Assembly: GCA_012515515.1 (NCBI GenBank)
Contig: JAAYYE010000013.1
Location: 2,293 to 66,292 of the forward strand
Length of the DNA: 64,000 nucleotides
Direction: 5' to 3'
Source of the DNA: Minisyncoccota bacterium
Lineage (GTDB): Bacteria; Patescibacteriota; Microgenomatia; UBA1400; PJMF01
Part shown: piece by piece, positions 8,437-58,611 of the stretch
Position numbering within the stretch: position 1 is the stretch's first letter
Layout of the letters: every line of letters begins with the position of its first letter
Program-made: the position numbers and the translations under genes
Notes under the pieces: model-generated
Seen by the model: only the letters and a program-made list of their open reading frames with translations
Told to the model about the DNA's origin: nothing
Databases searched by the model: none

Positions 8437-8548
8437 TTGCTTGGCTAATTTTTAATTTGTGCTCGCTTTTCGCTTTTCGCTTACTGCTTTTTTGCTTTGC
8501 TCCTTGTCATTTGTTTGTCATTTTCGCCTTGTATCATTATTTTAATCA

Positions 8549-9217: not shown

Positions 9218-9365
9218 AATATTATAAGATTCTCGATGCCTAAAAGGCAGCAAAAACGAGTAGTCTTGTTGCTAATAAATCAGCAAAAATACGACATAAA
9301 ACAAGAAAAATCTTTAAATTTTAAAAAGTTTTAAGCAACTAGCACATTTTGCATCAATACTAGGC

Positions 9366-10730: not shown

Positions 10731-10731
10731 T

Positions 10732-11709: not shown

Positions 11710-12347
11710 GCGGCTCTTTGAGCAAGTTACAAAATTAACTGTTGTTAACAACTTAGCAATGTGGGCAGAATTGCCAAATTATTACTCACAAAATACTATG
11801 CAACAATTTCCAAAAAAATGCAAGTTTTGTGTTCAATTTAAGAAATTTTATTAAAAAAGCCAAGCAAAAATGTGCTCAATTTTGCTGAGTTTATATAGCT
11901 AATTAAGCAAAAACTGAAGCCAATTAAGCAAAAAAACATAGGCCTTTAATTTTTATTTTTCAAAAAAAAGAATAAAAAATCATTGAAATTTGTAAAAAAA
12001 TGCTGTTTATTTAAACTCTTAAATTTGGTCAAAAGTGCTGTTTTGCAAAAAAAAGAGGGAAAATTAAAGAAATTTTACTCTGGAGATCGCAAAAAGCAGC
12101 TCAAGCCAGGTACTTGAGGAAAAATTTCTTGCCAAAAAAGCGCTAGCTATGACCGAAAAACGTCCGAATTAGTAAAAGCTAGTGTTTTGCTAAAATGACA
12201 AAATTGAGTAAATATTTTTTGTCATAAAACAAGGACTAATTTCTTGCATTAAAAAAAGGCTAAGAGTAAAAAATATACTCAAAACCATTCGCCTTTTATT
12301 AGCCAAATTATAAATTCGCTAATTTTCATTAATGCTACAATAGGCTT

Positions 12348-42014: not shown

Positions 42015-44012
42015 TTAATCGCCAGGATGATATCCTGGCTCAATGTTTTGTTGGGCAGTTTCGGCTCTCAAATTTTGACCAAATTTTGTTGTTGCGGGTT
42101 TTAAATCAATTAAGCCCACCAGTTCGTGAGTAAGATTGCCTGACCACAAAGCTCCTAGATCTGTTCGACCCTTTTTTTTGTACAAAGCAGCTAAAGCTTT
42201 AATGTTTTCTAAAATGCGTCGGCCAATTAGCTTGTAAGCTTCAAGTGGGCTGTTGGCACTTATCAATGATTGAATATAATTTTGAAACTCCTGTTCATTG
42301 TATTGTGGCGAGCCAATTAGTTCGTGAAATTTTAATAAGGAAATAAACCAATCTTGTTTATATGCTCCCCACTGGTCTTCAAAACTTATGTTTCGTAACA
42401 GCTCGGTGGCTTGTCTTTCCAGCCACGAGATGGCCATGATGTGATTTGGCTCAATGCCGATCACTTTTTCCTCCATCATTGTGCTTAATTCTTGGTTTAG
42501 ATAGTTGATTGCGTTTGCCAAGACCTCTTTATTGCTCAAAACTCCATTTATTTTAGCTTGTTCTAGTGTTTGCAATTGTTGGTTTAATTCTTTGTCAGAG
42601 GTTGTGGGTGGGAAGTCTGATACCGGTTTGGTGTTTTCTGCCAATCTTCTCAGGACATCAATAGGTTTTACTTTTTTTCTACTTGCGTTTCTTTCTTCAA
42701 TTTCCATTTCATATTTTTCTTTGTTAAACAACAGCTGGATTCGTTCTGCTGAATTAAAATAATCAGCTTTGGGAATTACTTGTTCTAATTGAGATTTATC
42801 ATTAGTATCGTAATAATGAAGCATTGAGGTAATCAGCTCATTCACGTAAGGGCGTTGGTCGTGGATGCAGTCTCGTAAGATACCAAATGGTTTTGCCATT
42901 ATTAGGCCGTCTAATCGATTTTGCTCCAATTTAGCCAAACTTGTGGCTGGGACCTCCCTAGCTGCAAGTAATAATTCATTGAGATTTTCAGAAGATACTT
43001 GACTGGCATAAGCGTGACAAAGATAATCGCCAACCCCAAAATCTCCACGCCTCATTCCCCAAATATTGCCACTTTTTAAAAGAATTTCGACCTGAGGATC
43101 ATTATTTTGCATTGCGGGAAGCAAGCGATCTATTAATCCTCGTAATTTTTCTGCCGTTAAATCATGATTTCTGGTATAACTTGATATTGCCTCAGCAAAC
43201 TTTGCTCCAATATCTCTATCAAAATAATTAGCAACTTCTTTGTAAATCTGTAGCATTAATTTGATTTGATCTGGATTATTAGAGTATAGACCGGATTGAG
43301 TGGCGCCACTCATAAAATTTTTGTCCAACTCATCTTTTGGTCGTTGAGCTGTAACTAGATAATGATGTTCATAAAGCTCAGAAAAGGCATTAAAAAAATT
43401 GATAAATTCTTCAGGTTTTTTTGCAGTTGGGCGTGAGTATCTATTAGACCCAGATATTTCAATTAAAACTTTTTGAAAATCTTGCACCCTTTCTTGAGCC
43501 GTTGGCTCATCTATTTCGCTCATAAATTTTGATTTCCATTGGCTCGCTAAGGATTGGTTAAATTTTGCTTGATCTGCAGTAGCACAAACCCCCGTCCACT
43601 GCCTCATGTTTGCAGGGGTTAATTCGCTTTGAGAAGGAAGAATGCTGATGCTTAAGTCGCGAAGCGCTGTAATATATTCAGCAAAATCTTGATCAGAAAT
43701 TTCTTTTTGAGTAATGTTGAAAATTAAATTTTGTTTATCACGTTTAGTTTTAGACAGCCTTAAACTTGCTTCTTCTTTTTCTTTTTCATCAAGTTGATCG
43801 ACTGGCTTTTGCTGATTGTGTGCAATTTCTTCGTATTGTTGCTCTAAAGTTTTGTCAGGAAAAATAGCATCCACCTGTGGTTGAACGATTGCTGTCCGCA
43901 ATTGAGTCTCTTCTAGAATTTTAAGATCTTCAGCGGTCCATTGAAATAATGTTTCTTTATCGTTATTATTATTAGTTGGTTGGGGTTTAGCTGTTTCTGC
44001 TGGTTGTTGCAT
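42015..44012 (-). CDS. Hypothetical large protein (665 aa)
   Basis: Long ORF 20 nt upstream of the 41329..41994 ORF, in the same orientation. No motif recognised. Confidence 0.45.
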   Translation of the reverse strand: MQQPAETAKPQPTNNNNDKETLFQWTAEDLKILEETQLRTAIVQPQVDAIFPDKTLEQQYEEIAHNQQKPVDQLDEKEKEEASLRLSKTKRDKQNLIFNITQKEISDQDFAEYITALRDLSISILPSQSELTPANMRQWTGVCATADQAKFNQSLASQWKSKFMSEIDEPTAQERVQDFQKVLIEISGSNRYSRPTAKKPEEFINFFNAFSELYEHHYLVTAQRPKDELDKNFMSGATQSGLYSNNPDQIKLMLQIYKEVANYFDRDIGAKFAEAISSYTRNHDLTAEKLRGLIDRLLPAMQNNDPQVEILLKSGNIWGMRRGDFGVGDYLCHAYASQVSSENLNELLLAAREVPATSLAKLEQNRLDGLIMAKPFGILRDCIHDQRPYVNELITSMLHYYDTNDKSQLEQVIPKADYFNSAERIQLLFNKEKYEMEIEERNASRKKVKPIDVLRRLAENTKPVSDFPPTTSDKELNQQLQTLEQAKINGVLSNKEVLANAINYLNQELSTMMEEKVIGIEPNHIMAISWLERQATELLRNISFEDQWGAYKQDWFISLLKFHELIGSPQYNEQEFQNYIQSLISANSPLEAYKLIGRRILENIKALAALYKKKGRTDLGALWSGNLTHELVGLIDLKPATTKFGQNLRAETAQQNIEPGYHPGD

Positions 44013-46357: not shown

Positions 46358-46407
46358 TGGTTTTATTGTTTCTCCCAAACAATTGGTTTTATTGTTGTTC
46401 CCAAACA
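46358..46407. repeat. Tandem pair of 25-nt hairpin-forming repeats between convergent genes (probable bidirectional terminator). Second copy overlaps the giant gene stop.
   Basis: GGTTTTATTGTTTCTCCCAAACAAT and GGTTTTATTGTTGTTCCCAAACAAT. Each contains ATTGTTT...AAACAAT inverted arms. Confidence 0.45.
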
Positions 46408-49400
46408 ATATTCATATCTTTGAGTTTGTAATTGGGACTATAAGAAAATATTTTTTCTTCTTCAAAACTAAAGGCTTTATTTATTTGCCGTACCCTTTCG
46501 TCCATAGCTTTTTCAAATTTTCCTCCGGTACGATTGGTTCTAATTGCTCCATTTTTTGATAATAAAATTTTATTAAAACCATTGTTTTTAGCAAAAGTTT
46601 CCAAAACTTTCATCAAGCCATTAAACATCGATGCTTCATCTGTAGAGTAGAGGAAAGTGCTAGAAGGATTTAGGGAAGCGCTGAGCACTTTTTCTCCTTT
46701 TTCCTCAAAATGATGTAGCAATACTAATCCAAGACAGCGATTAGTATCGGGATCTTGTAAAACGAGCTGAAAATAGTTCTCACTATCCCACATGTTTGGT
46801 TTTTGTTGTTCTGGACTTTGATTGGCAAGGGGGTTGTCTTGGCTTACACAAACTCCGCCCACCATTCTGGCATTAGCACTTTCCTTAGTTTTGGAAAAGA
46901 AGCCATTGATTACTTGTCTTTGTTTACCAGATTCGCTTTCAAATTTTGCCAACTCAGTTTCTAGCAGATTTTGTTCATCGGCAAATAAATTGACAAATCT
47001 TAAAGCAGTCAGGGCTTGAAATTGTTCTTCGTCATATTCGCCAGTATCGATTTTGGCTAAAGAAAGGGCTAAATCTTCCAAACTAGTATCGCCTAAACGA
47101 AATTCTTGCAAATTTAGGGAGTTTCCAGTTAGAGTTTCAACGGCCTCCATAGTTTTAGTTCTTTGAGCTTTGACCTGCCCATAAAATGCCCTAGTGCTGC
47201 TTTTTTCTGAAGTGCTATCAACACTTAAACCTTGAGTTAAATTTTCATAATAAAGAATTAATTTTTTGATAGTTTCCGGTGGATATTTTTTACCCATTCT
47301 TTTTTCGATAGTGCGACTGATTTGTGCAATAAAGCTGTCACTCATTCCCAAACGGTCAAGTCTAAACCTATTACTTTGATCACTCAGTTTTGCTTGAGCC
47401 TGTTCTTGAACAATTTTTGCAAAATATTCTTGCATTCTCTCTTTTAGCACTTGGTTTTCCCATCCAGCTTTGACTAAACGCCGATTGACCTCCTTAATCC
47501 GATCAGTAAAAAAACTGTGTAATTCACACATTAGGGCATATTCTTGATTGGAAGCTTGACTAACTCGATCAGTAGTGCCTTGGATGTAATCTCTAACATC
47601 TTCAAACAAAGCAAATTCATAACGCAAAATTAAGTCTTTTAACTCCTGATGGGGGACGGTTTTATCGGTATAAACAGAATCAGCTAAAAGAATAAACATT
47701 TTTTCGTCTAAAGTGTTTAATTGTTTAAGATCAAGATTTTTTAAACCACCCGCAGCCAATTTGTTTTCTAACAATGCATCAACTTTTTCTTCCAACTCTG
47801 TTTGAATTTTTTCTAAATCAAAGCTACTGGCTTTCATTTCCTCTGCCAAAGTTAAAATAGGTTTTTTCAGAGACTCAATAGCTGGCTCATTGATTACTTC
47901 ACCTTCTTTGACTTTAATTTTTGCCGCTGCCAACAAATCAATTTCATATTTTTGATCATAAGTAAACTGAGTTAAATCGGCAGTTCTGTCAACACAAGCT
48001 TTAGTTTTTGCCAAACCTCCCCAGTTTCCAGCATTATTAGGATAAACCGCTTTGAGCAGGTCATTGTAAAAGAGTTTTTGTCTATCTTGTTCAGGAATCG
48101 GTTCCGAGCTGATCATTTGGCTGCCTAGTTGTTGTAATTCTGCAACATAAGCCTCTTCTAAATTTCTCGCTTCAGCTTTTAAATAACCTTCAGCAATTGT
48201 TGGACTTAAAACTCTAAATTTTTGTGTAAAATTTAAAATTTTATTTCTATTTTCACTAGTAATGATACCTGCTTTTATACAAATCACATATTCGTCCAGA
48301 ATAGTTAAAGTTTTTTTACCATGAATCCCAATAAACCTGCTTAAAAATTTTAAATCTTCAGCATTGTTGGCAATATCTTTACCGTGATTAAAGATAAATA
48401 GTCTGAGACTTGCTTGGTCTTTATTAAAAAGATGGGGTAGAATTTTTATATAATCATAAGAAAGTTCGGGTTGAATTTGTCCTTGGCCAACTGCTTGTAA
48501 AACTTCCATGGAAATTTCCTGATCAGAATTGTTTTCAAGACATGTCTGATAAAATTTTGTTAAAAATTGTAGGCCCTCGTCGCTGACAAAATCAAATTTT
48601 GGACTACTTATGAGTATCAAGTGATCTTTATTTAGTAATTTAGGAGCATGTTCATAAAAATTTAAGGCGTTATTTTTAGAAAGTTTGCCATCCACCACAC
48701 TAGATAAAATTTTAACTAATGCTTCAGCATTGCTTGCTTGTGTACTGTCGCCATACTTGTCATCAAACTTTTGATAAAAATCCATACCTGATTTATTAAA
48801 AAAATATGGCAGTTTGTGTTGGAAAAATTGAAACTTCCGCCAATTCTTATTATTATTTAAACAAGGATATGAGTCATAAGCGTCAGCAAGAAAGTTTAAG
48901 TCTTCGATAGAGACCGAGTGCTTTCCACCACAGCTACCCACAATACCTATGAAGTCATAAGAAGTTAAAAACGAGAGTTTTTTTGGATTATCCTGATTTT
49001 TTTCCCACAACTCTGTTAAATATAGGAAAGTTCTAAGATTAGTTAATAAATCTAAATATTTATCACTTTGAGGATCGGCATTATTCAAGTTCTTTAAAAT
49101 ATTTCTAAATATATCTTCCCAATTTAGTAAATTCATTCTAATCTCATGGGCTTCTATTATTGATTCTAGATTGTCGTCATCAACTTGACTAAGTGTCAAC
49201 ACAAGATTGGATGCTCGTTGATAAGCCAAAACATCTTCTTGGCTAAGAATACCCTTAGTAAACGTTTCAGCAACTAGCGTATCATTGGTTAAAGAGTTTC
49301 GAGCCATTGTTCTTAAGCGATCGTCCTCAGATTTATCATCATAAATTCGTTTAGCTAATTGCGAGCTTGTTTCTTTAATATTTGGGTAGTTTTCGTATTC

Positions 49401-50927
49401 AGCAAAATCCCAATTAAGTAATAATTCTCGAATCTGACTTAATTCAGGATAGCTTTGGACTGCTTGCTCTAATAGTTCTGGCCAATCTGTTCTTTGAGCC
49501 AGTCGCTTGAGAGCAGCGTTGGCATGAATAAGTCGGTATCCCACCTGATCATTATCAGTAGCAGCGATGATAACTAAATTTTTAATAGTATTGGGAGTTG
49601 GATAATGAACCAACTTATCAATATAACCACCTTCAGTATCGCTTAATGATTGATCCATTAAAATTGTATAGATTTGATCATCAAAACTTTTAATTAAAGA
49701 AGCATATGTTGCCTGTGCTGTCTTTGATTTCTTAACAGCATTAAAATAACCCAAGTCCACTTGGTCTATAAACTCATCTACTTGCCAATTACCGTACCTG
49801 TTATAACCAGGTTGTAAATGTTTGCTTAAGTAGGGGATAAGCTTGTTTCTAATTTGATCGGGTAAATTTTCTAAGAAAGCTTGCTGAACTTCGCCTTCTT
49901 GGTCGTAAGCTAAGTCCATGAGTAAAGCCTGAATTATTTTTAGGTCTTCTTTTTGATATATGGATTGCAGCTGAGAGTCTACTGCATAAAAAGCAGAAGT
50001 GTTTTTTTCCATTTCCGCTCGCGCTTCTTGCTGTTTATCATCATTGCCGGCATTTCTAGCATCAATATATTTAGTCAAATTTTTCATGAACTTATCCACA
50101 TCTTGTTTGCTAAAATTTTCTCCCACCTGTGCTTCTAATTTAGTCAGGATTTCTGTATCAATGTATTCTTGAGTGATTTCTTGTCTAATCCAAGCTGAAT
50201 TTTCCACATTTTGTATAGGTTTTCTCCAGGCTTCCACCACTTGTTGAATATCTTCCTCTAAATAAAATGTGGCTTGAGTGGCTGAATATTGATCAAGCTT
50301 TATATTTGCATCTTCAATCGACTCGAGTTGTGATTCAAGCTTCTGCAATTCTTCGTTTAATTGTTCTTTCTCTGTTTGATAATTTTTTTCAACCAATTGT
50401 TGGCTAGATTCTTGGCTAGTGCTGAATATGCTTCTAATTTGTTTGGCAATTTTTTTATACCAGCTTGCCGAAGACGACTCTTCACTATCTCTGATTAGTT
50501 CTTGCTCTTGCTGGCGCTTTAATTCTGCTAGTGCCAAATCAAGCTCTGAAACTTGTTTTTCAAGTTGCAAAATGCTTTCTTTCAGAGAATTTTCTTCAAT
50601 AGTTAGTCGAGATTGGGCCTGATTAAGCGCTGGCCAATCAAGGTTTTCTGCTTTGACATTCTGCTGGAGTTGTTCGTCTGTGGGCACAGCTGCCAGAGCT
50701 ACTTCTAGGGAAAGCTCGCTGTGATCTTGATCTAGCTTAGGAATTAAATTCTGTTTAAAAGCTTCTAACTTTTTTTTGATGTTGGCAGTAATTAATTGAG
50801 CTTGAACAACTTCAGGATCCATTTTGGCTTCAGCTGGTCGCTGAACTTCATCTGTTAAAGGATTATTAACATTGGCTTGCTGATTGGCATTATTAAGTGA
50901 ATCCTTCATTAAGTTTAATCCTATCAA
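46389..50927 (-). CDS. Giant (1512 aa) cytoplasmic coiled-coil-rich protein with a distinct C-terminal globular Cys/His-containing domain
   Basis: No signal peptide or TM. N-terminal 350 aa heptad-like (LQLEKQVSELDLALAELKRQQEQE...). C-terminal about 170 aa ...MVGGVCVSQDNP...NRCLGLVLLHHFEEKGEK...IRTNRTGGKFEKAM... Asn/Lys-rich composition. Confidence 0.55.
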   Translation of the reverse strand: MIGLNLMKDSLNNANQQANVNNPLTDEVQRPAEAKMDPEVVQAQLITANIKKKLEAFKQNLIPKLDQDHSELSLEVALAAVPTDEQLQQNVKAENLDWPALNQAQSRLTIEENSLKESILQLEKQVSELDLALAELKRQQEQELIRDSEESSSASWYKKIAKQIRSIFSTSQESSQQLVEKNYQTEKEQLNEELQKLESQLESIEDANIKLDQYSATQATFYLEEDIQQVVEAWRKPIQNVENSAWIRQEITQEYIDTEILTKLEAQVGENFSKQDVDKFMKNLTKYIDARNAGNDDKQQEARAEMEKNTSAFYAVDSQLQSIYQKEDLKIIQALLMDLAYDQEGEVQQAFLENLPDQIRNKLIPYLSKHLQPGYNRYGNWQVDEFIDQVDLGYFNAVKKSKTAQATYASLIKSFDDQIYTILMDQSLSDTEGGYIDKLVHYPTPNTIKNLVIIAATDNDQVGYRLIHANAALKRLAQRTDWPELLEQAVQSYPELSQIRELLLNWDFAEYENYPNIKETSSQLAKRIYDDKSEDDRLRTMARNSLTNDTLVAETFTKGILSQEDVLAYQRASNLVLTLSQVDDDNLESIIEAHEIRMNLLNWEDIFRNILKNLNNADPQSDKYLDLLTNLRTFLYLTELWEKNQDNPKKLSFLTSYDFIGIVGSCGGKHSVSIEDLNFLADAYDSYPCLNNNKNWRKFQFFQHKLPYFFNKSGMDFYQKFDDKYGDSTQASNAEALVKILSSVVDGKLSKNNALNFYEHAPKLLNKDHLILISSPKFDFVSDEGLQFLTKFYQTCLENNSDQEISMEVLQAVGQGQIQPELSYDYIKILPHLFNKDQASLRLFIFNHGKDIANNAEDLKFLSRFIGIHGKKTLTILDEYVICIKAGIITSENRNKILNFTQKFRVLSPTIAEGYLKAEARNLEEAYVAELQQLGSQMISSEPIPEQDRQKLFYNDLLKAVYPNNAGNWGGLAKTKACVDRTADLTQFTYDQKYEIDLLAAAKIKVKEGEVINEPAIESLKKPILTLAEEMKASSFDLEKIQTELEEKVDALLENKLAAGGLKNLDLKQLNTLDEKMFILLADSVYTDKTVPHQELKDLILRYEFALFEDVRDYIQGTTDRVSQASNQEYALMCELHSFFTDRIKEVNRRLVKAGWENQVLKERMQEYFAKIVQEQAQAKLSDQSNRFRLDRLGMSDSFIAQISRTIEKRMGKKYPPETIKKLILYYENLTQGLSVDSTSEKSSTRAFYGQVKAQRTKTMEAVETLTGNSLNLQEFRLGDTSLEDLALSLAKIDTGEYDEEQFQALTALRFVNLFADEQNLLETELAKFESESGKQRQVINGFFSKTKESANARMVGGVCVSQDNPLANQSPEQQKPNMWDSENYFQLVLQDPDTNRCLGLVLLHHFEEKGEKVLSASLNPSSTFLYSTDEASMFNGLMKVLETFAKNNGFNKILLSKNGAIRTNRTGGKFEKAMDERVRQINKAFSFEEEKIFSYSPNYKLKDMNIVWEQQ

Positions 50928-51085
50928 ATATGAGGGCTGGGCTACAAGGGGGAGCTGGTGGGGGGGATTTTAGCTTTTGTACAAAATTGTTCAAAGAGGA
51001 GTTGGGAGAATTTTGTAGTAGTCAAATTAATGAATCAAAGATTTAATACAAGCCTAAAAAATATATTACTGTATAATCAGAAGTA

Positions 51086-51433
51086 ATGTCGAAAATTAAA
51101 GAACTTACTCAAAGATTAATTGATTTTCGTGAAGTTCGCAATTGGAAACAATTCCATAGCCCAAAGAATTTAGCAGAATCAATTTCTATAGAAGCAAATG
51201 AGCTGCTAGAACACTTTCAGTGGTTGGATTTAGAAGAAAGTAAAAGATATAGTGTGGAACACAAGCAAGAACTAGCAGAAGAAATTGCTGATGTTCTGAA
51301 TTATCTAGTTTTATTAGCTCATGACCTAGACATTGATTTGATTGAAGCTGCAATTAAAAAAATAGAGATAAATAATAAGAAATATCCAATAAAAAAGTCA
51401 AAAGGTATAAGCACAAAATATAATAGATTATAG
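51086..51433 (+). CDS. MazG-like / DCTPP1-like all-alpha NTP pyrophosphohydrolase
   Basis: FREVRNWKQFHSPKNLAESISIEANELLEHFQW ... EEIADVLNYLVLLAHDLDIDL ... NNKKYP aligns motif-by-motif with the DCTPP1/MazG-like family (RDWEQFHQPRNL...GELAELFQW...ELSDVLIYLV...RYP). Confidence 0.75.
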   Translation: MSKIKELTQRLIDFREVRNWKQFHSPKNLAESISIEANELLEHFQWLDLEESKRYSVEHKQELAEEIADVLNYLVLLAHDLDIDLIEAAIKKIEINNKKYPIKKSKGISTKYNRL

Positions 51434-51442
51434 AATTACAAA

Positions 51443-53305
51443 ATGGTTGTTTATAAAAATACAGCTACTGGATTTTGCTACGACGTTGAGACCAATAAGA
51501 TAGCTGACAGCATAGAATTAGCTTTCAAAAATAGTCTTGGTCGAAAAGTAAATCCCAGTGAAAAAAGTGCTTGGATAAACTCCATGTCATTTATGGAAAG
51601 AATAGTTCGTAATTCTGGAGTGGCTCAAGACTGTGGGGTTTTAATAGAATATAATATTCCAGCTACTTCTAAAAGAATAGATTTCATAATTGCTGGTTGC
51701 GACAGTGAAAACAAAAAAAAATTTGTTATTGTTGAACTTAAACAATGGCAGCTAGCGCATAACACTTTTAAAGATGGGCTTGTAACTAGTTTTTTTAGAG
51801 GTGGCGAAAGAGAAACTCCACATCCGTCTTATCAAGCATACTCTTACAAAAGTTTCTTAAAAGACTATAACGAGAATATTTATAACGGTAAAATTAATCC
51901 CTATTCATGTGCATATTTACACAATTATAAGGAAAAACACCCAGAGCCTCTAAAAGCTGATATATATAAAGAATATGTAGCTGATTCTCCAATTTACTTT
52001 CAAGATGACTTTGAAAAGTTAGCAAATTTTATAAAAATGCATGTTGGTAATGGCGGTGGGGAAGAAATTCTTTATGACATAGAGTCGGGGAGAATCAGGC
52101 CTAGTAAAAGATTAATTGACTGCGTAAACGCAATGTTTAAAGGCAATCAAGAATTTATTCTGTTGGACGAACAAAAGGTTGCCTATGAAACAGCTCTTCA
52201 TAATGCTATCAATAGTAAAGAAAAAACTGTGATTATTGTTAAAGGTGGCCCCGGCACTGGCAAATCAGTTGTTTCAATGAATTTATTTGGAGGATTACTC
52301 ACTAAACAGTTAAATACAGTTTTTGTAGCACCCAATGCCGCTTTTAGAAGTGTAATGAAACATAAATTAGCTGGAGAGGAAAGGAGAGAGAGATTAAATC
52401 ATTTGTTTAAAGGTTCGGCAGCTTTCTACGGATTACAAGATAACGTTTATGACGCAATTGTTGTTGATGAAGCGCATCGTTTAAAAAATTATAAAGCTTA
52501 CCAATATTTTGGACAAAATCAAATTGAAGATATTGTGAAGGCTGGTAAAACTAGTATTTTTTTTGTTGACGAAAATCAAATTATTCGTCCAGAAGACATA
52601 GGTTCGATTGAAGAAATTAAAAAAATAGCCAATCAACAACATGCAACAATTAATGAAATAGAACTACAGGCTCAATTTAGATGTTCTGGTTCAGACGGAT
52701 ATATAAATTGGTTAGATAATACTTTAAGAATCAAAGAAACAGCAAATTTTGATGGCTGGGAAGACAAAAACTTTGAATTTATTATTTTTGATGATCCGAA
52801 TGATTTAAGGCAAGCTATTAAGAATAAACAAAATCAGGGGTTTGATGCTCAATTGTTAGCAGGATACGCTTGGAAATGGACGAGTGCAAAAGAAGGCAAC
52901 TCTAATTCTCAGAGTGAAGATGTCCAGATACCAGAATACAACTTTAGTATGCCTTGGAATTCACGAAAAGCTGGGTCAAATTGGGCAATTGATGAAAGTA
53001 GCCATGAACAAATTGGTTGTGTGCATACAAGTCAAGGTTTAGAATTTGATTATGTGGGTGTAATCGTTGGCAATGATCTGCGCTTTGATAAAGAAAAATT
53101 TGAGTATTTTGTTCCCTGGAACTCTTATAAAGATATGGCTGGAAAAAAGGGTTTAAAAAATGAACCTGAAAAGCTATGCTTATTGGTAAAAAATATTTAT
53201 AAAATTTTAATGACCAGAGGTATTTATGGTTGCTATGTTTTTTTTCAAGACAAAAATTTGAAAGAGTTTATTGAAAGTAGATTGAAAAACGATTCATACA
53301 AGTAA
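51443..53305 (+). CDS. DUF2075-type protein: N-terminal PD-(D/E)xK nuclease-like domain fused to a Schlafen-like/SF1-like P-loop ATPase
   Basis: Putative nuclease core KRIDFIIAG...FVIVELKQW (D...ExK). Walker A VKGGPGTGKSVV. Walker B DAIVVDEAHRL. C-terminal CVHTSQGLEFDYVGVIVG typical of the DUF2075 / UvrD-like C-terminal region. 9 nt downstream of the MazG-like gene. Confidence 0.7.
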   Translation: MVVYKNTATGFCYDVETNKIADSIELAFKNSLGRKVNPSEKSAWINSMSFMERIVRNSGVAQDCGVLIEYNIPATSKRIDFIIAGCDSENKKKFVIVELKQWQLAHNTFKDGLVTSFFRGGERETPHPSYQAYSYKSFLKDYNENIYNGKINPYSCAYLHNYKEKHPEPLKADIYKEYVADSPIYFQDDFEKLANFIKMHVGNGGGEEILYDIESGRIRPSKRLIDCVNAMFKGNQEFILLDEQKVAYETALHNAINSKEKTVIIVKGGPGTGKSVVSMNLFGGLLTKQLNTVFVAPNAAFRSVMKHKLAGEERRERLNHLFKGSAAFYGLQDNVYDAIVVDEAHRLKNYKAYQYFGQNQIEDIVKAGKTSIFFVDENQIIRPEDIGSIEEIKKIANQQHATINEIELQAQFRCSGSDGYINWLDNTLRIKETANFDGWEDKNFEFIIFDDPNDLRQAIKNKQNQGFDAQLLAGYAWKWTSAKEGNSNSQSEDVQIPEYNFSMPWNSRKAGSNWAIDESSHEQIGCVHTSQGLEFDYVGVIVGNDLRFDKEKFEYFVPWNSYKDMAGKKGLKNEPEKLCLLVKNIYKILMTRGIYGCYVFFQDKNLKEFIESRLKNDSYK

Positions 53306-53309
53306 TTTC

Positions 53310-53495
53310 TTATTCTTTTAGTAATTTAGATTCATTGGTGAATCTGTTAATTGATATTTTTTTGAGAATTTTTTTACCCCGCTTGGTGTCAAAATGAATG
53401 ATTTTTAATTTTTGTTTTTTATTAATAAAGCGAAATTGACGTAATTTTAAATCTACAGTATATTTTTCAAAAGTTGGAAGCTTTGTTATTGCCAT
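53310..53495 (-). CDS. Hypothetical small basic (Lys-rich) protein
   Basis: 61-aa ORF MAITKLPTFEKYTVDLKLRQFRFINKKQKLKIIHFDTKRGKK... Start codon abuts a perfect palindrome. Confidence 0.3.
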   Translation of the reverse strand: MAITKLPTFEKYTVDLKLRQFRFINKKQKLKIIHFDTKRGKKILKKISINRFTNESKLLKE

Positions 53496-53525
53496 TGTAA
53501 CTATTTTTTAAAAAAATAGTTACAA
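53495..53525. promoter_or_regulatory. Perfect 31-bp palindrome (15-nt arms), putative operator
   Basis: TTGTAACTATTTTTT-A-AAAAAATAGTTACAA, followed by an extra GTTACAA half-site copy at about 53530-53536. Confidence 0.4.
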
Positions 53526-53588
53526 TTGTTGTTACAAATTAAAAAAATCACTTGCTGCATTTAATGTAAACTTATTCTAATTAATTTC

Positions 53589-53747
53589 TCACCCTCTCTC
53601 CCAATCCAATTCATCAATTAAGCCCTCGGCATTGTCTAGGTCACCTAGGTCAATTAATTCCTCGATTTCAGCACTTTCGTCATCTGTTAGCAGCTCTTCT
53701 ATATCCCCAAGCCTTGATGTCAGCTCATCTTGTCTTTCTACATCCAT
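53589..53747 (-). CDS. Possible small highly acidic protein (52 aa), not in the ORF track
   Basis: Hand translation gives MDVERQDELTSRLGDIEELLTDDESAEIEELIDLGDLDNAEGLIDELDWERG*. Divergent from the DUF2779 gene. Could be non-coding. Confidence 0.25.
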   Translation of the reverse strand: MDVERQDELTSRLGDIEELLTDDESAEIEELIDLGDLDNAEGLIDELDWERG

Positions 53748-53769
53748 TCTTTAATTATATAATCAAGTT

Positions 53770-55341
53770 ATGACCATTTCCAAATCCGATTACATGCTTT
53801 TTCTTCGCCATCCGGCTTGGTTGTGGCTTAAAAAACACCAGCCCCAGCGTTTGCCCGAAGCCGATGCCAATCTCCAGGATATTTTTGCCAGTGGCCATCA
53901 ATTTGAGGCTTATGCGGAACAGCTTTTTCTTGGTGCCGTTAAATTGGGCTTTGCTGGCTATGATCAATATTTGAGCCTGCCAGAGAAAACTCAAGCCTTA
54001 ATTGACCAGCACACTCCCTGTATTTTGCAGGGGAGGCTAGAAGTTGATGGTCTGACTTGTATTTTTGATGTGTTGGAGCGGGTGGATGAGCAGACTTTTA
54101 ATTTAATTGAAATCAAATCTAGTACTAAGGCAAAAAACGTTCATCTTTACGATTTAGCTTTTCAAAGCTTGATTTTAGAGCGTTTGGGCTGGCAGGTGGG
54201 GGAGATTAGTGTGTTGCACGCTAATAAAGATTATCTGCGCCAAGGGGCAATTGATCCCGAGCAGTTGTGTAGTCGTAGTGAGGTCACTCAAGAGGTAAAA
54301 GCCCTTTTACCACAGACTAAAGACTTAGTTGAGCTAGCCAAAACTGTGCTCAAGCAGCCAGAGCCACCGTCTTTTTCACCCAGTTTAGTTAATATGGCTG
54401 GGGTAAAAGAGACCAACTGGCTCAAAGAGTGGTTGGCTATTTATTTACAAGAACTCCATCCAGATTTAAACAAATACAATATTTATCAGTTAGCTGGAGC
54501 AAAAGCCGAGCAATTGGGCAAACTCGAAAAGCAGGGCATTCAGCTCTTAGCCGATATTCCTGACGAATTAACCCTCGGCACTAAACAAAAGTTGCAAATC
54601 CAGACCACTCGGACTGCTCAGCCCTTGATTAATCAGTTGGCAGTTAAGGATTTTTTAGCCAGTTTGCACTATCCTTTATATTTTTTAGATTATGAAACGA
54701 TGACCTCAGTCATTCCTTTTTTTGACGGGATGAGGCCTTATCAGGATTATCCTTTTCAGTATTCGCTACATTTATTAAGGGAACCTGCTAGCAAATTAGA
54801 GCATTTTGCCTATTTGCATCAAGACAAGAGCAATCCTTTGCCAGGATTAATTGCTCAATTAAAGCAGGATTTGGCTGAGCAGGGTAGTATTCTGACCTGG
54901 AACATGAGCTATGAAAAGGGTTGTCACCAGCGCTTGGCCGATTTTTGTCCAGAGAAAGCGGAGTTTTTTGAGCAAGTTAATGAGCGCATTGTGGATTTGA
55001 TGACCGTCTTTAAAAACTTAGATTTTGTCGATCGAGATTTTATGGGCAGTGCTAGTTTGAAAAATGTTTTGCCCGTTTTAGTTCCCGAATTAAGTTACGC
55101 TGATTTAAATGTTAGCGATGGCATGTTCGCTAGACGGCTGTGGACAGACACTATTTTGCTAGGTAAAAATAAGCGGGAGAAAGAGGCAATTTTGCAAGAT
55201 TTGCTGGATTATTGTACTCTAGATACCTACGGCATGGTTCGGATTTTAGAGCTGTTGGAGAGGGTGGTGGAGGTGGAAAAGGCGGAGGGGGTGGAAAAGA
55301 TGAAAAAGGTGGAGAGCGCCACTCACACGCCCGACATGTGA
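53770..55341 (+). CDS. DUF2779-like protein: N-terminal RecB/Cas4-like PD-(D/E)xK nuclease plus C-terminal DnaQ-like (DEDD) 3'-5' exonuclease domain
   Basis: N-terminus MTISKSDYMLFL (DUF2779 ISKS signature). Nuclease motifs FDVLERVD...LIEIKSS and QSLILERLGW (QxxxY-like). C-terminal YFLDYETMT (Exo I DxE), WNMSYEKG (Exo II-like) and LLDYCTLDTYGMVRIL (Exo III Y...D). Confidence 0.6.
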   Translation: MTISKSDYMLFLRHPAWLWLKKHQPQRLPEADANLQDIFASGHQFEAYAEQLFLGAVKLGFAGYDQYLSLPEKTQALIDQHTPCILQGRLEVDGLTCIFDVLERVDEQTFNLIEIKSSTKAKNVHLYDLAFQSLILERLGWQVGEISVLHANKDYLRQGAIDPEQLCSRSEVTQEVKALLPQTKDLVELAKTVLKQPEPPSFSPSLVNMAGVKETNWLKEWLAIYLQELHPDLNKYNIYQLAGAKAEQLGKLEKQGIQLLADIPDELTLGTKQKLQIQTTRTAQPLINQLAVKDFLASLHYPLYFLDYETMTSVIPFFDGMRPYQDYPFQYSLHLLREPASKLEHFAYLHQDKSNPLPGLIAQLKQDLAEQGSILTWNMSYEKGCHQRLADFCPEKAEFFEQVNERIVDLMTVFKNLDFVDRDFMGSASLKNVLPVLVPELSYADLNVSDGMFARRLWTDTILLGKNKREKEAILQDLLDYCTLDTYGMVRILELLERVVEVEKAEGVEKMKKVESATHTPDM

Positions 55342-55505: not shown

Positions 55506-56723
55506 ATGGTCATTTCCAAAAAAACCAATTTTTTTATTTCCTTTGTTATTGTTTTTTCAGTATTATTGATTGGTTTTGGCTACAAATATAATGAGTGGTA
55601 TGTATTAAATTACTTAAATAATTTGCAAAGAGAGGCCGACCTTGCTGAATTGAAATTAATAGAAAAAAGCAACATACTAGCGCAGGACGATGAAGCGGTT
55701 AATGTTTTTATCGATTCTTTAACAGAAGAGCCTGATGTTATTGAAAGTAATTACAAAAAATTTAATTCTTATTTTTATTTAAACAAAATTACACATGAAG
55801 AGTACTATAAGCTTTTGCTTGATAACTATCATAAATATCAAAAAATAAATAAAAGAGCCACATTCTTACTTGGTTCAAAAAAAGAATTTGTCAATGAATT
55901 TCTTGATCTTACGAGCAATTATTATGAAAATGAGATAGAAAATAATGAAAATATAACAATATCGATAGCTTTTACGGAGAATCTTTATAAATTGTTAAAG
56001 GATCGATTAATTATTGAATATTATTTTTCTATATCTGATGATTTAGACGATCTAGCTAGCAACTTTGGACAAATTTCTAGTGCAGAAAAATACACGCATA
56101 CTGATTTTAAATTTGATCAAGAAGATGCAATTAGTTCTTATTATACTTCTGGATCAGAGTTACTAGACATTAATAAAAACTATATTTCTAGTTTATATTT
56201 GATTGCTAAAGACGTGGCAGCTGGTAATTATGAATCTGCAAGGTATAAACATGCTAGCCTGACGAATCAGGCAGCTGATTCTAACATTGATACTGACGAT
56301 GCATTTAGTGAAAACGAAGAGAGCAAAAGGAGATTGAGCCAAGAAATTGCGGCAATTAATATTAAAAAAATATTATTATTAGACGATTTGAATAAAAATC
56401 CCATTGATAATTATCCTTTTGTTGAATCATTAAAACCTTGGGAGGTTGATGCCCTTATTTGTAATTTATCTTGGTATAAAACCTCAATCTATGAAGATGT
56501 ATTTGATGAGATACCGATTGTTGATAATTTAGAAAACTTAATTGCTGAATTAAATAAAGTTCCACCAAGCACTGAACAACTAAGCGCAATTGTCAATTAT
56601 GAAACAAATAAAATTGAGTATGACACAGAAAATGGCAAATTAAGATTTATTTGTAAAGCAAATACCACAGGAGAAGAACTTGTTTTTATAACAGATTTAC
56701 CTCCTGCAGAAGAAAATGAGTAA
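55506..56723 (+). CDS. Hypothetical N-terminally anchored protein, very Asn/Lys/Ile/Tyr-rich
   Basis: 405-aa ORF. TM FFISFVIVFSVLLIGF. 8-nt overlap with the next ORF. Confidence 0.45.
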   Translation: MVISKKTNFFISFVIVFSVLLIGFGYKYNEWYVLNYLNNLQREADLAELKLIEKSNILAQDDEAVNVFIDSLTEEPDVIESNYKKFNSYFYLNKITHEEYYKLLLDNYHKYQKINKRATFLLGSKKEFVNEFLDLTSNYYENEIENNENITISIAFTENLYKLLKDRLIIEYYFSISDDLDDLASNFGQISSAEKYTHTDFKFDQEDAISSYYTSGSELLDINKNYISSLYLIAKDVAAGNYESARYKHASLTNQAADSNIDTDDAFSENEESKRRLSQEIAAINIKKILLLDDLNKNPIDNYPFVESLKPWEVDALICNLSWYKTSIYEDVFDEIPIVDNLENLIAELNKVPPSTEQLSAIVNYETNKIEYDTENGKLRFICKANTTGEELVFITDLPPAEENE

Positions 56724-58611
56724 ACTAGCTCACTTAGTTTTTAAAATTAAACCCTTTCTTTTAATTATTTTTATTTTATTGTTGTTGTTAATTTTGTCTT
56801 ATGTTTATAAAGATTTATTTTATGTTGTCTTAGCAGCTTTGATTATTATTTTTCTCCTTCTTAAAAAAGTTTTATCTCAGGCGAAATTTTTAAAATCAAA
56901 AAAAAAGATAAAAGAAAAAAAACCAAAGGCGAAATCTACAGACATCAATTTTGAGAAGACTTTTAAATTAAGTAAGCGATTAATTAAAAAACCAAAAAAA
57001 ATTGTATTTTTTTTGGTCGGCTTGTTGGTTTGTTTACTTGTTTATTTACTTATTTTTGTATTTAAAGTAGGCGATATAGGCGATTTTAGTTTTTTTTCAG
57101 ACACCCTTAACAATGTTATTTCAATTTTCCAAAACCTTTATCTCATTGCTTCTTTCGGTCTAATATTTTTAGTTTTTTTAATTTATTTTATTAAACAAAA
57201 ATCAAGTGTTATCAGCAAGTTTATTCATTTTATTATTTATTTATTTATTGCCGTCTTTATCGCTTTTTTCCTAGTTTTTACCCTAACATTCTTTTATAAA
57301 AATTATTTATTATGGAGAATGCCTTCTTCAAACTCGATCATAATTGATTCCGATTTGATTAATGAAGAACTACGAAAAATGGACAAACCACCCACAGTCT
57401 TAGTTTCTTTTGAGGATCTTGGTTCAGAAATTCATCATGCCTATTTAGCGAGTCAAGTTGCTTTTGGCAATAGTTATTTTAAAAATCTTGTGTCTATAAG
57501 TCCAACTTTCATCGAGACAGACACTACTTTTGCAGAAGCGAAAGCAGTTTTAATAGAAAATCAATTGATATTTCCAAAAATAGATAAAGACACAATTGAA
57601 AAACTAAGTCCTAATTTGGGGAAGCTTTATGTGCAATCTTATTTGGAAGATAAATATGTAAAAGAATTACCAACAGTTACTGTTCTAGGCAGACAAGATT
57701 ATCTTTCATATCGAGCAGACATGATAAATGACCAAGTTCTTGAGTTAGAAGAGATAAGCGCCAAACTACAATCAGAATTAAATGGTGTTTACGGAATGAT
57801 CAATGAAGCCGAGAGGGCAATTTCACAAAACGAATACTATATTCAAGAGGCTACTTTAAGAAGAACGAGCGATTACGATTATTGTATGACTGCTGGATAT
57901 TATTCATATTATTTGGAAGTTTTTTATCGAACATACAGCGACTCAACATGTGAAAGTGAATGGAATCAATGGTCGGCTATTATCCAAGAATATTATGATA
58001 ATATTGATAGCTTAAACCAAACAATAGCTTGGGCTAGACAAGAAGCAGCCTTTTACAAAGAAACTTTGCAAGAGTTCGATGCCTATATTTCATTAATAGA
58101 GTCCCAAAAAGAAGCAACAGTTTATGAATTAGGCCTATTTGAACCTGGTGAAAATATAAAAATCGCATTAGATAACACTGGCGCCAATTCTTTAGCTGAT
58201 TATTTATCGACTTTGGTGCACGAATATTTTCACTATACAAGCTATGTTTCAGATGAAAAAGTTTTGCCACTTTTTTTTGAGGAGGGCTTAACCGAATATT
58301 TTGCTAGAAAATCAATTGAACAAGAATTAAAAATTAGCACGGAGTTGGGCTATCCAGTAATAGTAACAATAATTAACAAAATGGTTGATGATATTGGCTT
58401 AGATAAGCTACAAAATATCTATTTAACTAAGAGTAAAGATGTGCTTATTGCAGAACTCAATCAGGCTTATGGAGATACTTTTTATGAAGATACTGAGTAC
58501 TTTTTTATGCTAATGCTTTATTTGGGGATAGAAGATCAATTGGGAATAGCTAATAATATCCTTTTTAGAATTGGAGGGGACCAATTAAATCTAGAAGACT
58601 ATAAAATTTAA
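56716..58611 (+). CDS. Polytopic membrane protein with C-terminal gluzincin-like HExxH...E metallopeptidase motif
   Basis: At least five hydrophobic segments in the first 200 aa. LVHEYFHYTSYVSDEKVLPLFFEEGLTEYFA (HExxH + EG(L)TxYF, reminiscent of the M1-type (W/F)xxEGxAxY third-ligand motif). Confidence 0.5.
   Translation: MSKLAHLVFKIKPFLLIIFILLLLLILSYVYKDLFYVVLAALIIIFLLLKKVLSQAKFLKSKKKIKEKKPKAKSTDINFEKTFKLSKRLIKKPKKIVFFLVGLLVCLLVYLLIFVFKVGDIGDFSFFSDTLNNVISIFQNLYLIASFGLIFLVFLIYFIKQKSSVISKFIHFIIYLFIAVFIAFFLVFTLTFFYKNYLLWRMPSSNSIIIDSDLINEELRKMDKPPTVLVSFEDLGSEIHHAYLASQVAFGNSYFKNLVSISPTFIETDTTFAEAKAVLIENQLIFPKIDKDTIEKLSPNLGKLYVQSYLEDKYVKELPTVTVLGRQDYLSYRADMINDQVLELEEISAKLQSELNGVYGMINEAERAISQNEYYIQEATLRRTSDYDYCMTAGYYSYYLEVFYRTYSDSTCESEWNQWSAIIQEYYDNIDSLNQTIAWARQEAAFYKETLQEFDAYISLIESQKEATVYELGLFEPGENIKIALDNTGANSLADYLSTLVHEYFHYTSYVSDEKVLPLFFEEGLTEYFARKSIEQELKISTELGYPVIVTIINKMVDDIGLDKLQNIYLTKSKDVLIAELNQAYGDTFYEDTEYFFMLMLYLGIEDQLGIANNILFRIGGDQLNLEDYKI

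Follow-up and report, generated by a model that had tools for sequence, protein, structure and literature searches.

A MazG-like pyrophosphohydrolase gene recurrently paired with a DUF2075 nuclease-helicase gene: a candidate two-gene relative of Nhi-type anti-phage nucleases

Nhi of S. epidermidis (SERP2475; Bari et al.) and Nhi-like (Millman et al. 2022) are validated single-protein anti-phage defense systems, and Nhi is proposed to act by breaking down the replication intermediates of phage DNA. Both consist of an N-terminal PD-(D/E)xK-type nuclease followed by a DUF2075 (PF09848) SF1B-like helicase, and the same domain order was found in a protein encoded in the window, a stretch of 64,000 nucleotides from a Minisyncoccota bacterium (GenBank assembly GCA_012515515.1, contig JAAYYE010000013.1). 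However, Nhi and Nhi-like are described as single proteins, whereas members of the window family are accompanied by a MazG-like gene in about three quarters of loci. PF09848 is also among the Abi Pfam families that serve as defense markers (PMC10121019). In searches against PADLOC-DB (2023 release), the Nhi model matched only the helicase part of the window protein (E = 1.2e-14, profile positions 178–402 of 470) and left the nuclease domain unmatched, and the same helicase-only match was seen in three other family members. By this comparison the window nuclease-helicases form a predicted family separate from the Nhi family model; the separation refers to the PADLOC model, and Nhi-like of Millman et al. 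was compared by the description of its architecture only. The best PADLOC matches were PDC-S41 (E = 7.5e-22 over aa 3–317, with the N-terminal domain and P-loop in common) and AbiO (E = 4.6e-15 over the ATPase). For each family member that was tested, PDC-S41 scored 57–75 bits over only part of a model of 657 positions, and this partial, low-score coverage suggested a sister family rather than the same one. Besides, PDC-S41 is a candidate system of one gene, unvalidated and lacking a MazG component. The MazG-like protein itself matched no PADLOC model at E ≤ 0.01, known depletion systems included. An earlier note on this DNA, made from the letters alone, could name no system for the pairing; this holds for the pair, although its second gene, taken by itself, shows the architecture of Nhi and Nhi-like. 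Our literature search found neither a description of a MazG-like and DUF2075 pairing nor a phage-protection experiment on this nuclease-helicase family.

The two co-oriented reading frames and the 9-nt gap between them are present exactly as the earlier note claimed (Table 1), and all motifs that it quoted could be located in the translations: RNWKQFHSPKNL (aa 18–29), ELLEHFQW (aa 39–46), EEIADVLNYL (aa 65–74) and KKYP (aa 98–101) in the MazG-like protein, and RIDFIIAG (aa 78–85), VIVELKQW (aa 95–102), GGPGTGKS, DEAH and TSQGLEFD (aa 529–536) in the nuclease-helicase. No terminator-like sites were detected by a scan of positions 50800–53900, which agrees with an operon of both genes. The perfect TATAAT hexamer in front of the MazG-like gene may tentatively be regarded as a possible -10 element, in which case the transcript would be leaderless or nearly so; it was absent from the list of a consensus promoter scan, whose counts were not above those for shuffled sequence. 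The pair had been placed in an AT-rich accessory stretch. We found that AT-richness was mild (GC 0.31–0.34 around the pair vs ~0.37 for the window), but in a relative whose DUF2075 protein is 96% identical the flanking genes differ, which supports a variable region.

Table 1. Positions of the gene pair and its features in the window
Feature	Positions	Strand	Length or note
TATAAT hexamer, perfect, 8 nt 5' of MazG-like start codon	51072..51077	+	read from sequence
MazG-like (DCTPP1-type) all-alpha nucleoside-triphosphate pyrophosphohydrolase	51086..51433	+	115 aa
Intergenic spacer, 9 nt	51434..51442	+	read from sequence
PD-(D/E)xK nuclease + DUF2075/Schlafen-group-3 SF1B helicase	51443..53305	+	620 aa
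PD-(D/E)xK nuclease domain	51443..52147	+	aa 1 to ~235
Candidate catalytic residue D80	51680..51682		
Candidate catalytic residue E98	51734..51736		
Candidate catalytic residue K100	51740..51742		
DUF2075/Schlafen-group-3 SF1B-type helicase-ATPase domain	52160..53305	+	aa ~240-620; PF09848
Walker A GGPGTGKS	52244..52267		aa 268-275
Walker B DEAH	52466..52477		aa 342-345

The second protein gave a full-length match to PF09848 (E = 2.5e-92, 310 bits vs a gathering cut-off of 24, aa 261–603, profile positions 1–354 of 354), as had been expected. Residues K274, E343, H345, R346, Q411, R413, Q531 and R592 were invariant in 81 of 81 divergent relatives, and D342 was kept in 80 of them. Structure prediction for the whole protein (pLDDT 88, pTM 0.87) yielded Foldseek matches to RecD2, RecD, Dna2, Dda, Upf1 and SLFN11 (E = 1e-9 to 7e-7), and the helicase part is modeled as an SF1-type fold of two RecA domains. 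By sequence, the DUF2075 protein alone matched no solved structure in the PDB, and the family profile matched there only generic P-loop proteins, SRP and Ighmbp2. The candidate catalytic residues of the N-terminal domain are E69, D80, E98 and K100, the last three being invariant in all 81 relatives, together with the motifs H127-PSYQA and C156-AYLHN. The predicted fold resembles restriction nucleases, and the PD-(D/E)xK nuclease core recognized in the earlier note is upheld as that of a predicted restriction-endonuclease-like nuclease. A modified-base reader (SRA, PUA/EVE, DUF3427, McrB-N etc.) was absent from the 620-aa protein in Pfam, NCBIfam and PADLOC searches, and because no reader domain is recognizable, a dependence of the DUF2075 protein itself on DNA modification is unsupported. 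Longer relatives carry an additional LexA/UmuD-like S24 domain (22 of 80 relatives, and 17 of the best 120 database matches; Pfam scores 26–40 bits vs a cut-off of 23.3), and 17 of 17 such long forms conserve an A/C-G site as well as a Ser and a Lys that align with the catalytic residues of LexA. The window protein is a short form in which Pfam detected no S24 domain.

The first protein belongs to the MazG-like family PF12643, a further assignment that stood when the profile was run (E = 4.2e-16, 59.4 bits vs a gathering cut-off of 27, profile positions 2–85 of 85). Its sequence matches in the PDB were the archaeal pyrophosphatase 4qgp (E = 4e-21), mouse RS21-C6 (E = 3e-18) and human DCTPP1 (E = 5e-15), which share with it a small all-alpha MazG-like fold. 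The metal-binding motif, E36-x-x-E39 ... E66-x-x-D69, was invariant in 43 MazG homologues and was kept in the window copy and in all 60 alignable partner genes of relatives (one further copy was truncated and lies outside the 60). In HMMER alignments it corresponds to the EXXE...EXXD metal site of RS21-C6, and the positions W20, H24 and W46 of the window enzyme also line up with RS21-C6. RS21-C6 and DCTPP1, its closest characterized relatives, prefer dCTP and 5-substituted dCTP and sanitize 5-methyl-dCTP pools rather than depleting dNTPs in bulk (PMC10742078), and by homology the window enzyme probably has a preference for 5-substituted dCTP. In contrast to these eukaryotic housekeeping pool sanitizers, which have no nuclease partner, the window gene is located in an apparently mobile cassette.

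The pairing recurs across genomes, as the earlier note had proposed to check: a same-strand MazG-like gene was present at 61 of 80 genome loci of nuclease-helicase relatives, in CPR, Bacillota, Bacteroidota, Pseudomonadota, Chloroflexota, Elusimicrobia, Mycoplasmatota and Methanobacteriaceae. It was upstream in 55 loci, with a spacer of at most 20 nt in 38 of these, and in 18 of the 55 the two genes overlapped, mostly by 4 nt. For example, on a haloarchaeal plasmid an annotated "nucleotide pyrophosphohydrolase" lies 5 nt upstream of a "DUF2075 domain-containing protein". At the remaining 19 loci no MazG-like gene was detected (the upstream flank could not be checked in 2 of them). When loci were compared pairwise, the identities of the MazG-like proteins correlated with those of their nuclease-helicase partners (Mantel r = 0.53, a value that none of 2000 permutations reached). 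The reverse test started from close MazG relatives: of 53 metagenome loci that could be assessed, at least 30 had a DUF2075 gene alongside. For about 40% of such relatives the neighbors were different, including a clade next to an RlmJ-like methyltransferase and one copy next to a UPRTase. These may be housekeeping contexts, but such contexts are not the main ones for this MazG type. Conserved pairing supports the view that the two genes form a functional unit, and we infer the functional link itself. None of the three refuting observations named in the earlier note was made, as the genes recur side by side, the MazG-like gene is not chiefly a member of a housekeeping operon, and the nuclease residues are kept. 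The nuclease-helicase family is large, with at least 8000 candidate homologues in Bacteria and Archaea at E ≤ 1e-10, and its distribution is patchy; together with identities of 41–59% between unrelated phyla, this patchy spread indicates horizontal transfer. Plasmids also carry the family. In viruses the family is rare: it was matched in 4 records among 50,697 from phages and at 8 loci in IMG/VR, and a phage-borne origin was rejected on these few occurrences.

Only the two paired genes are conserved, and their flanks vary among loci. The defense setting suspected in the earlier note is borne out by these flanks, in which type IV restriction enzymes were the most recurrent identified class (~19% of neighborhoods, as a raw frequency). 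SauUSI-like enzymes flanked 9 loci (PADLOC mREase_IV, E = 1.8e-118) and McrB/McrC-like pairs flanked 6, and McrBC and Mrr were also observed, as were C5 methyltransferases, Fic, AbiU2 HEPN and HD/HD_assoc_2 proteins and restriction-modification genes. Type IV enzymes combine a reader with a nuclease, and adjacency at these loci is the cassette's only link to them. In 5 loci (L024, L025, L045, L064 and L077) a NUDIX gene lies beside the SauUSI-like enzyme and the cassette. The best or second-best NCBIfam match of these NUDIX proteins was NF007834, a pyrimidine (d)NTP diphosphatase family which we take to be of the NudG/Orf135 type, with scores of 83–124 bits, under its equivalog cut-off of 156. 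The SauUSI-type enzyme with a NudG-like NUDIX (PADLOC mREase_IV, PDC-S07) is likewise a nuclease-helicase paired with a small (d)NTP pyrophosphatase, which suggests a logic parallel to that of the cassette, although the folds (PLD nuclease, SF2 helicase, NUDIX) are unrelated. Also, SauUSI-type enzymes contain DUF3427, a domain treated in the literature as modification-sensing, whereas the DUF2075 protein has no recognized reader.

Most likely, the pair is a two-gene version, so far undescribed, of an anti-phage nuclease of a known kind. Specifically, we favor a horizontally mobile cassette against phages or other mobile DNA, in which a nuclease-helicase effector is joined by a MazG accessory that clears modified dCTP; we put the probability of this reading at roughly 45%. 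We infer the substrates of both enzymes and the anti-phage role. The ATP-driven SF1B-type motor of the 620-aa effector would load on foreign or aberrant DNA, and its PD-(D/E)xK domain would cut the DNA so engaged, as in Nhi and Nhi-like. The 115-aa enzyme would be a frequent yet dispensable accessory, hydrolyzing non-canonical, probably 5-substituted, dCTP to the monophosphate, by homology to DCTPP1 and RS21-C6. Clearance of modified dCTP coupled to the nuclease is suggested because the MazG relatives are 5-methyl-dCTP sanitizers and because a NudG-like NUDIX adjoins SauUSI-like enzymes; we also counted in its support the pairing of this MazG subfamily with McrA-like HNH nucleases. Such clearance could serve two ends that are not mutually exclusive: the host chromosome would be kept free of modified cytosine, which is relevant beside modification-dependent nucleases, and phages whose DNA is made with modified dCTP would be starved. 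In the long forms with an S24 domain, which make up roughly one in four family members and do not include the window protein, effector activation would be tied to RecA-ssDNA filaments.

If the cassette is a defense system, it would add a two-gene relative to Nhi and give a MazG-type enzyme its first functional role on the host side of phage defense; in a 2026 survey MazG domains were predicted as defensive and none was validated (PMC13092281). The NUDIX-SauUSI parallel suggests that, as a more general rule, nuclease-based immunity may be assisted by dNTP-pool hygiene, and the LexA-like fusions offer a tractable route to how SF1B nuclease-helicases are switched on, for comparison with human SLFN11. 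The occurrence of the cassette in a ~0.8-Mb CPR contig indicates that such modules are retained even in highly reduced genomes. A bolder form of the proposal, which we consider rather unlikely as a whole, is a widespread undescribed immunity in which nuclease-helicases work with modified-dCTP-policing pyrophosphatases of two unrelated folds (DCTPP1-like MazG and NudG-like NUDIX), starving phages with modified cytosine and averting self-restriction, and in which the long forms are licensed by RecA via LexA-like self-cleavage as a counterpart of SLFN11 under replication stress.

Bulk nucleotide depletion, the logic proposed in the earlier note, was not specifically supported and is an unlikely account of the pair. 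Under it the DUF2075 protein would sense phage DNA and switch on the MazG-like enzyme, dCTP or all dNTPs would be drained, and phage replication would stall. Nucleotide-depletion defenses such as dCTP deaminase and dGTPase exist, and the tight coupling of the genes and the intact MazG catalytic residues are in line with such a role, as is the prediction, though not validation, of defensive MazG domains (PMC13092281). However, those systems use a deaminase or an HD-type effector, whereas the window enzyme is a pyrophosphohydrolase of another fold. Its 115 aa make up a catalytic domain alone, regulatory modules being absent, and it had no PADLOC match to any depletion enzyme. Its characterized relatives sanitize 5-methyl-dCTP pools, and 19 of 80 DUF2075 loci had no detected MazG-like gene. 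No fusion of MazG to DUF2075 or to a nuclease was found: the MazG matches listed were 105–147 aa long, the best 150 of 6240 MazG cluster representatives were all at most 331 aa (some being tandem duplications), and PF12643 was absent from the best 120 DUF2075 homologues. The same MazG subfamily is, besides, alternatively paired with McrA-like HNH nucleases, whose weak matches, in PDB and PADLOC as well, covered the HNH motif only; in Pfam, nothing significant was obtained for the N-terminal domain of the HNH partner or for other MazG partners.

A role in DNA-damage or replication-stress maintenance appears distinctly unlikely. Here the MazG-like enzyme would sanitize damaged or aberrant dNTPs and, under SOS control, the nuclease-helicase would process damaged DNA or forks that have stalled, as a bacterial analogue of SLFN11. 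The S24 domains of 22 of 80 relatives, in which the cleavage site is intact and Ser and Lys are aligned, are consistent with this, as are the house-cleaning function of DCTPP1-type enzymes, the Schlafen group 3 helicase domain and the presence of SLFN11 among the fold matches. Against it stand the patchy, horizontally transferred distribution, the variable and defense-rich flanks, which differ even between close relatives, and the occurrence on plasmids. Also, both genes were missing from the complete E. coli genome collection in a DNA-level search with a gammaproteobacterial copy.

It is less probable still that the cassette is an abortive-infection RNase, in which the N-terminal domain would cleave tRNA or other RNA like a Schlafen core, the helicase would sense ssDNA and translation shut-off would stop the phage. 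PF09848 is the Schlafen helicase family, anti-phage effectors have been reported among prokaryotic Schlafen nucleases, and tRNA cleavage is the means by which human Schlafens restrict viruses (PMC12330615). Human SLFN11, described as a tRNA-cleaving ribonuclease with a different N-domain motif (Ex4ExK; PMC12330615), has no MazG partner and is only remotely similar to the window protein in sequence. Against the RNase reading, the window domain carries a classical D...ExK motif with a weak NERD match, its best fold matches in structure comparison, at equal or higher Z, were DNA restriction endonucleases and DNA nucleases, and Nhi, the closest architecture, is proposed to act on phage DNA; a dNTP-directed partner likewise suits DNA better than RNA. 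Coincidental adjacency or mere operon packing, for which the compactness of CPR genomes and the DUF2075 relatives without a MazG-like gene might speak, is scarcely credible and already contradicted by the synteny data, namely the one-strand pair at 61 of 80 loci in unrelated phyla and Archaea with many stop/start overlaps, the correlated identities and the recovery of the pair in the reverse test.

Two further candidates were rejected. A MazG clade specific to DUF2075 partners was not supported, as the clustering of nearest-neighbor labels lacked significance (866 of 5000 permutations). MazG copies linked to HNH genes interleave with DUF2075-linked copies, and RlmJ-linked copies showed a similarity of 0.61 to each other vs 0.47 to DUF2075-linked ones. 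A DUF2779 (Cas4-like) gene downstream of the pair was considered as a third cassette component, but at the other 80 loci no such gene was found close to the pair; in a close relative it is kept at 90% identity.

Both genes of the pair were recovered with the boundaries claimed in the earlier note and with every motif it had quoted present in the translations. Its two family assignments were also upheld, both matches lying above the Pfam gathering thresholds: PF12643 (MazG-like) for the 115-aa protein (E=4.2e-16), and PF09848, currently named Schlafen group 3 helicase and formerly DUF2075, for residues 261-603 of the 620-aa protein (E=2.5e-92). A spacer of 9 nt separates the ORFs in the window sequence, and a perfect TATAAT with TG directly before it occurs at window 51072..51077, 8 nt ahead of the MazG-like ATG. 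The description of the stretch as AT-rich held only mildly, since GC content at the cassette was 0.31-0.34, lower than the window-wide value of ~0.37 by a small difference. No obvious Shine-Dalgarno sequence was seen in the window ahead of either gene, and the MazG-like transcript may be leaderless. A Candidatus Pacebacteria (CPR) genome assembled from a metagenome encodes a DUF2075 protein identical to that of the window.

Coordinates of the gene pair, its window neighbours and features of related loci (L, loci of relatives; P, homologous proteins)
Feature	Location	Strand	Remarks
MazG-like gene	window 51086..51433	+	ORF, 115 aa; PF12643
DUF2075 gene	window 51443..53305	+	ORF, 620 aa; PF09848
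Giant ORF	window 42015..44012	-	665 aa
Giant ORF	window 46389..50927	-	1512 aa
Small ORF	window 53310..53495	-	61 aa; directly after cassette
Small ORF	window 53589..53747	-	52 aa, very acidic; after 61-aa ORF
DUF2779 protein	window 53770..55341	+	Pfam E=1.9e-36
Long-form DUF2075 examples	L019:5998-8376, L043:5995-8418		proteins P0021, P0053, P0120
McrA-like HNH nuclease partner	L092:395-1369, L138:1790-2806; also L102, L139, L159		325-339 aa
RlmJ-like methyltransferase partner	L126:4311-5204, L142:2193-3143; also L106, L127, L149, L163		
NUDIX + SauUSI-like pair	L045:2490-5664, L064:217-3529, L024:2464-5976, L025:1159-4695, L077:8372-11762		

A scan with 20 aligned homologues of the DUF2075 protein, taking one genome per species, yielded 80 loci with 41-59% identity from many phyla, 2 of them from Archaea. 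A search of the six-frame ORFs of these loci with an HMM built from MazG homologues found a MazG-like ORF in 61 of 80, on the same strand every time, upstream of the DUF2075 gene in 55 and directly downstream in 6. Among the 55 upstream copies, the gap was ≤20 nt in 38, 18 overlapped the DUF2075 gene (mostly by 4 nt), and 8 were located >100 nt off with other ORFs intervening. The remaining 19 loci had no detected MazG-like ORF, and 2 of these end at the upstream contig edge. On a haloarchaeal plasmid, for example, an annotated "nucleotide pyrophosphohydrolase" lies 5 nt upstream of a "DUF2075 domain-containing protein". We also examined 80 metagenome loci containing the closest MazG relatives: a DUF2075 gene was present in 30 (directly adjacent and on the same strand in 27), 23 had space on either side and no DUF2075 gene, and 27 were too short for judging. 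Whichever gene served as the starting point, the association was strong, yet it is not obligatory. Neither observation that the earlier note had named as contrary to a module, homologues scattered apart or a MazG-like gene belonging to a conserved housekeeping operon elsewhere, was borne out by synteny.

Our favoured explanation, to which we assign an overall confidence of about 0.45, is a mobile two-gene defence-type cassette in which the nuclease-helicase would act as effector and the MazG-like enzyme, a frequent accessory, would clear non-canonical dCTP. A defence function as such is probable, and the modified-dCTP mechanism specifically is tentative; we infer both the substrates and the anti-phage role from family membership. 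In a PDB sequence comparison the closest solved relative of the MazG-like protein was the archaeal pyrophosphatase 4QGP (E=4e-21), with mouse RS21-C6 (E=3e-18) and human DCTPP1 (E=5e-15) also matching. Its EXXE...EXXD metal-binding residues (E36, E39, E66 and D69) were invariant in 43 homologues and kept in every alignable partner gene. Besides, a NUDIX gene adjoins a SauUSI-like enzyme and the cassette in 5 loci, in the order NUDIX-SauUSI-MazG-DUF2075 or MazG-SauUSI-NUDIX-DUF2075, in places as a four-gene co-directional block. Among NCBIfam models, the one for pyrimidine (d)NTP diphosphatase (NF007834), which we take to be of the NudG/Orf135 type, ranked first or second for this gene, its scores of 83-124 bits staying under the equivalog cut-off (156). 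The gene also matched the PADLOC candidate PDC-S07 (E=4e-47). Relatives of both pyrophosphatase types are thus neighbours of nuclease-helicases within shared islands. For this reason we propose clearance of modified dCTP over the bulk dNTP depletion put forward in the earlier note, a rival reading that the conserved pyrophosphatase residues would also fit.

The MazG subfamily was found with other partners as well. In 5 metagenome loci it adjoins a McrA-like HNH nuclease in place of DUF2075; the N-terminal 240 aa of this nuclease have no domain assignment, and the HNH-linked MazG copies interleave in sequence with the DUF2075-linked ones. In 6 loci it adjoins an RlmJ-like methyltransferase, a context that may be housekeeping; these copies had a mean identity of 0.61 among themselves versus 0.47 to DUF2075-linked copies.

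A function of the cassette in SOS or repair is the alternative that bears on the long forms of the DUF2075 protein (~790-820 aa), found in 22 of 80 relatives and 17 of the top 120 database matches, with an S24 domain at the C-terminus that scored 26-40 bits (Pfam cut-off 23.3). In all 17 long forms aligned to E. coli LexA, an A/C-G dipeptide occupies the cleavage position and an "SM" serine and a "K(R/K)" lysine align to the catalytic residues, which suggests that long forms may undergo RecA-stimulated self-cleavage. A MazG partner accompanies 21 of the 22 long forms; the window protein is a short form without the S24 domain.

The full-length AlphaFold model of the 620-aa protein (pLDDT 88, pTM 0.87) resembles, in its C-terminal two-thirds, the SF1B helicases RecD2, RecD, Dna2, Dda, Upf1 and SLFN11. 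The N-terminal 240 aa, modelled separately, gave a pLDDT of 88.7. The nuclease core proposed in the earlier note stood, since the classical D...ExK motif (E69, D80, E98 and K100) was invariant in 100 close and 81 divergent homologues. Similarly, the Walker A lysine K274, the Walker B glutamate E343 and other helicase-motif residues were invariant in 81 of 81, and the Walker B aspartate D342 was kept in 80. A Schlafen-like RNase acting through abortive infection, a rival to which the Schlafen group 3 assignment is relevant, fits this invariant nuclease motif less readily. Coincidental adjacency would suit the unpaired loci and is hard to reconcile with the way the two proteins diverge together from locus to locus: their pairwise identities are correlated (Mantel r=0.53; 0 of 2000 permutations as high), which indicates that the genes were co-inherited.

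The 620-aa protein has the same architecture as Nhi and Nhi-like, known single-protein anti-phage defences, but is by sequence a new family of that kind; its best PADLOC models (2023 release) were PDC-S41, AbiO and Nhi, at only 52-75 bits with partial coverage. The MazG-like protein matched no PADLOC model of this release and had no meaningful match in NCBIfam, and no pairing of DUF2075 with MazG or another pyrophosphatase was described in the searched open-access papers and preprints. The earlier note likewise could not put a name to this pairing. MazG domains have been predicted in defence and are unvalidated there (DefensePredictor, 2026; PMC13092281).

All-against-all clustering of neighbourhood ORFs left these two genes as the only conserved ones; the remaining large clusters all fall inside DUF2075 gene coordinates and were read as shadow ORFs. 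The flanks were variable and contained many defence-type genes: 9 loci had SauUSI-like type IV enzymes of PLD-helicase-DUF3427 composition (PADLOC mREase_IV, E=1.8e-118), 6 had McrB-like genes paired with DUF2357/PDDEXK_7, 4 had C5 methyltransferases, and McrBC, Mrr, Fic, AbiU2 HEPN, HD/HD_assoc_2 and HTH regulator genes also occurred. DUF3427 enzymes adjoining DUF2075 NTPases were noted previously (PMC6765204), and PF09848 serves as an Abi/defence marker (PMC10121019). The DUF2075 family occurred on 109 plasmid records but was scarce among viruses, with 4 matching entries out of 50,697 phage records and 8 loci in IMG/VR. Individual arrangements included a microbial-type PARG gene with its stop codon overlapping the start of the DUF2075 relative (L016:4985-6001), an AbiU2 HEPN protein placed between MazG and DUF2075 (L070:5355-5933) and an HD/HD_assoc_2 protein tightly joined upstream of the DUF2075 relative (L081:341-1531). 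The Hymenobacter plasmid NZ_CP114769.1 (L086) has tandem DUF2075 genes (8001-9857 and 10098-11987) adjoining a restriction endonuclease gene paired with a methyltransferase gene; transposase fragments occur close by, and a MazG-like gene is absent.

In the close Pacebacteria relative (L167), the DUF2075, MazG-like and DUF2779 proteins were 96%, 90% and 90% identical to those of the window. The upstream 1512-aa ORF, which had no match in Pfam, PADLOC or NCBIfam, gives way there to a different ORF of 1474 aa, encoded on the other strand and resembling it only weakly at the C-terminus (E=7e-4). ORFs equal in length and strand to the two small ORFs were called at matching positions in relatives; just downstream of the L167 cassette, they are set apart by an added gene for a C5 cytosine methyltransferase (matched in Pfam at E=4e-88) and an unassigned ORF of 270 aa (L167:9358-11131), which may be a restriction-modification insertion. 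The changed upstream gene and the downstream insertion mark the cassette region as variable. The DUF2779 protein gave weak Cas4 (PADLOC E=2e-4) and weak NCBIfam UU173-family matches, and outside the Pacebacteria relative its gene showed no association with the cassette in other lineages. Further downstream (window 55506..58611, + strand), a pair of ORFs (405 and 631 aa) that overlap each other, neither with a Pfam match, lie where the window is richest in AT (GC 0.28-0.32). The 631-aa ORF had a weak LmuB match (E=8e-4), and hydrophobic stretches in its N-terminal third are suggestive of candidate transmembrane segments.
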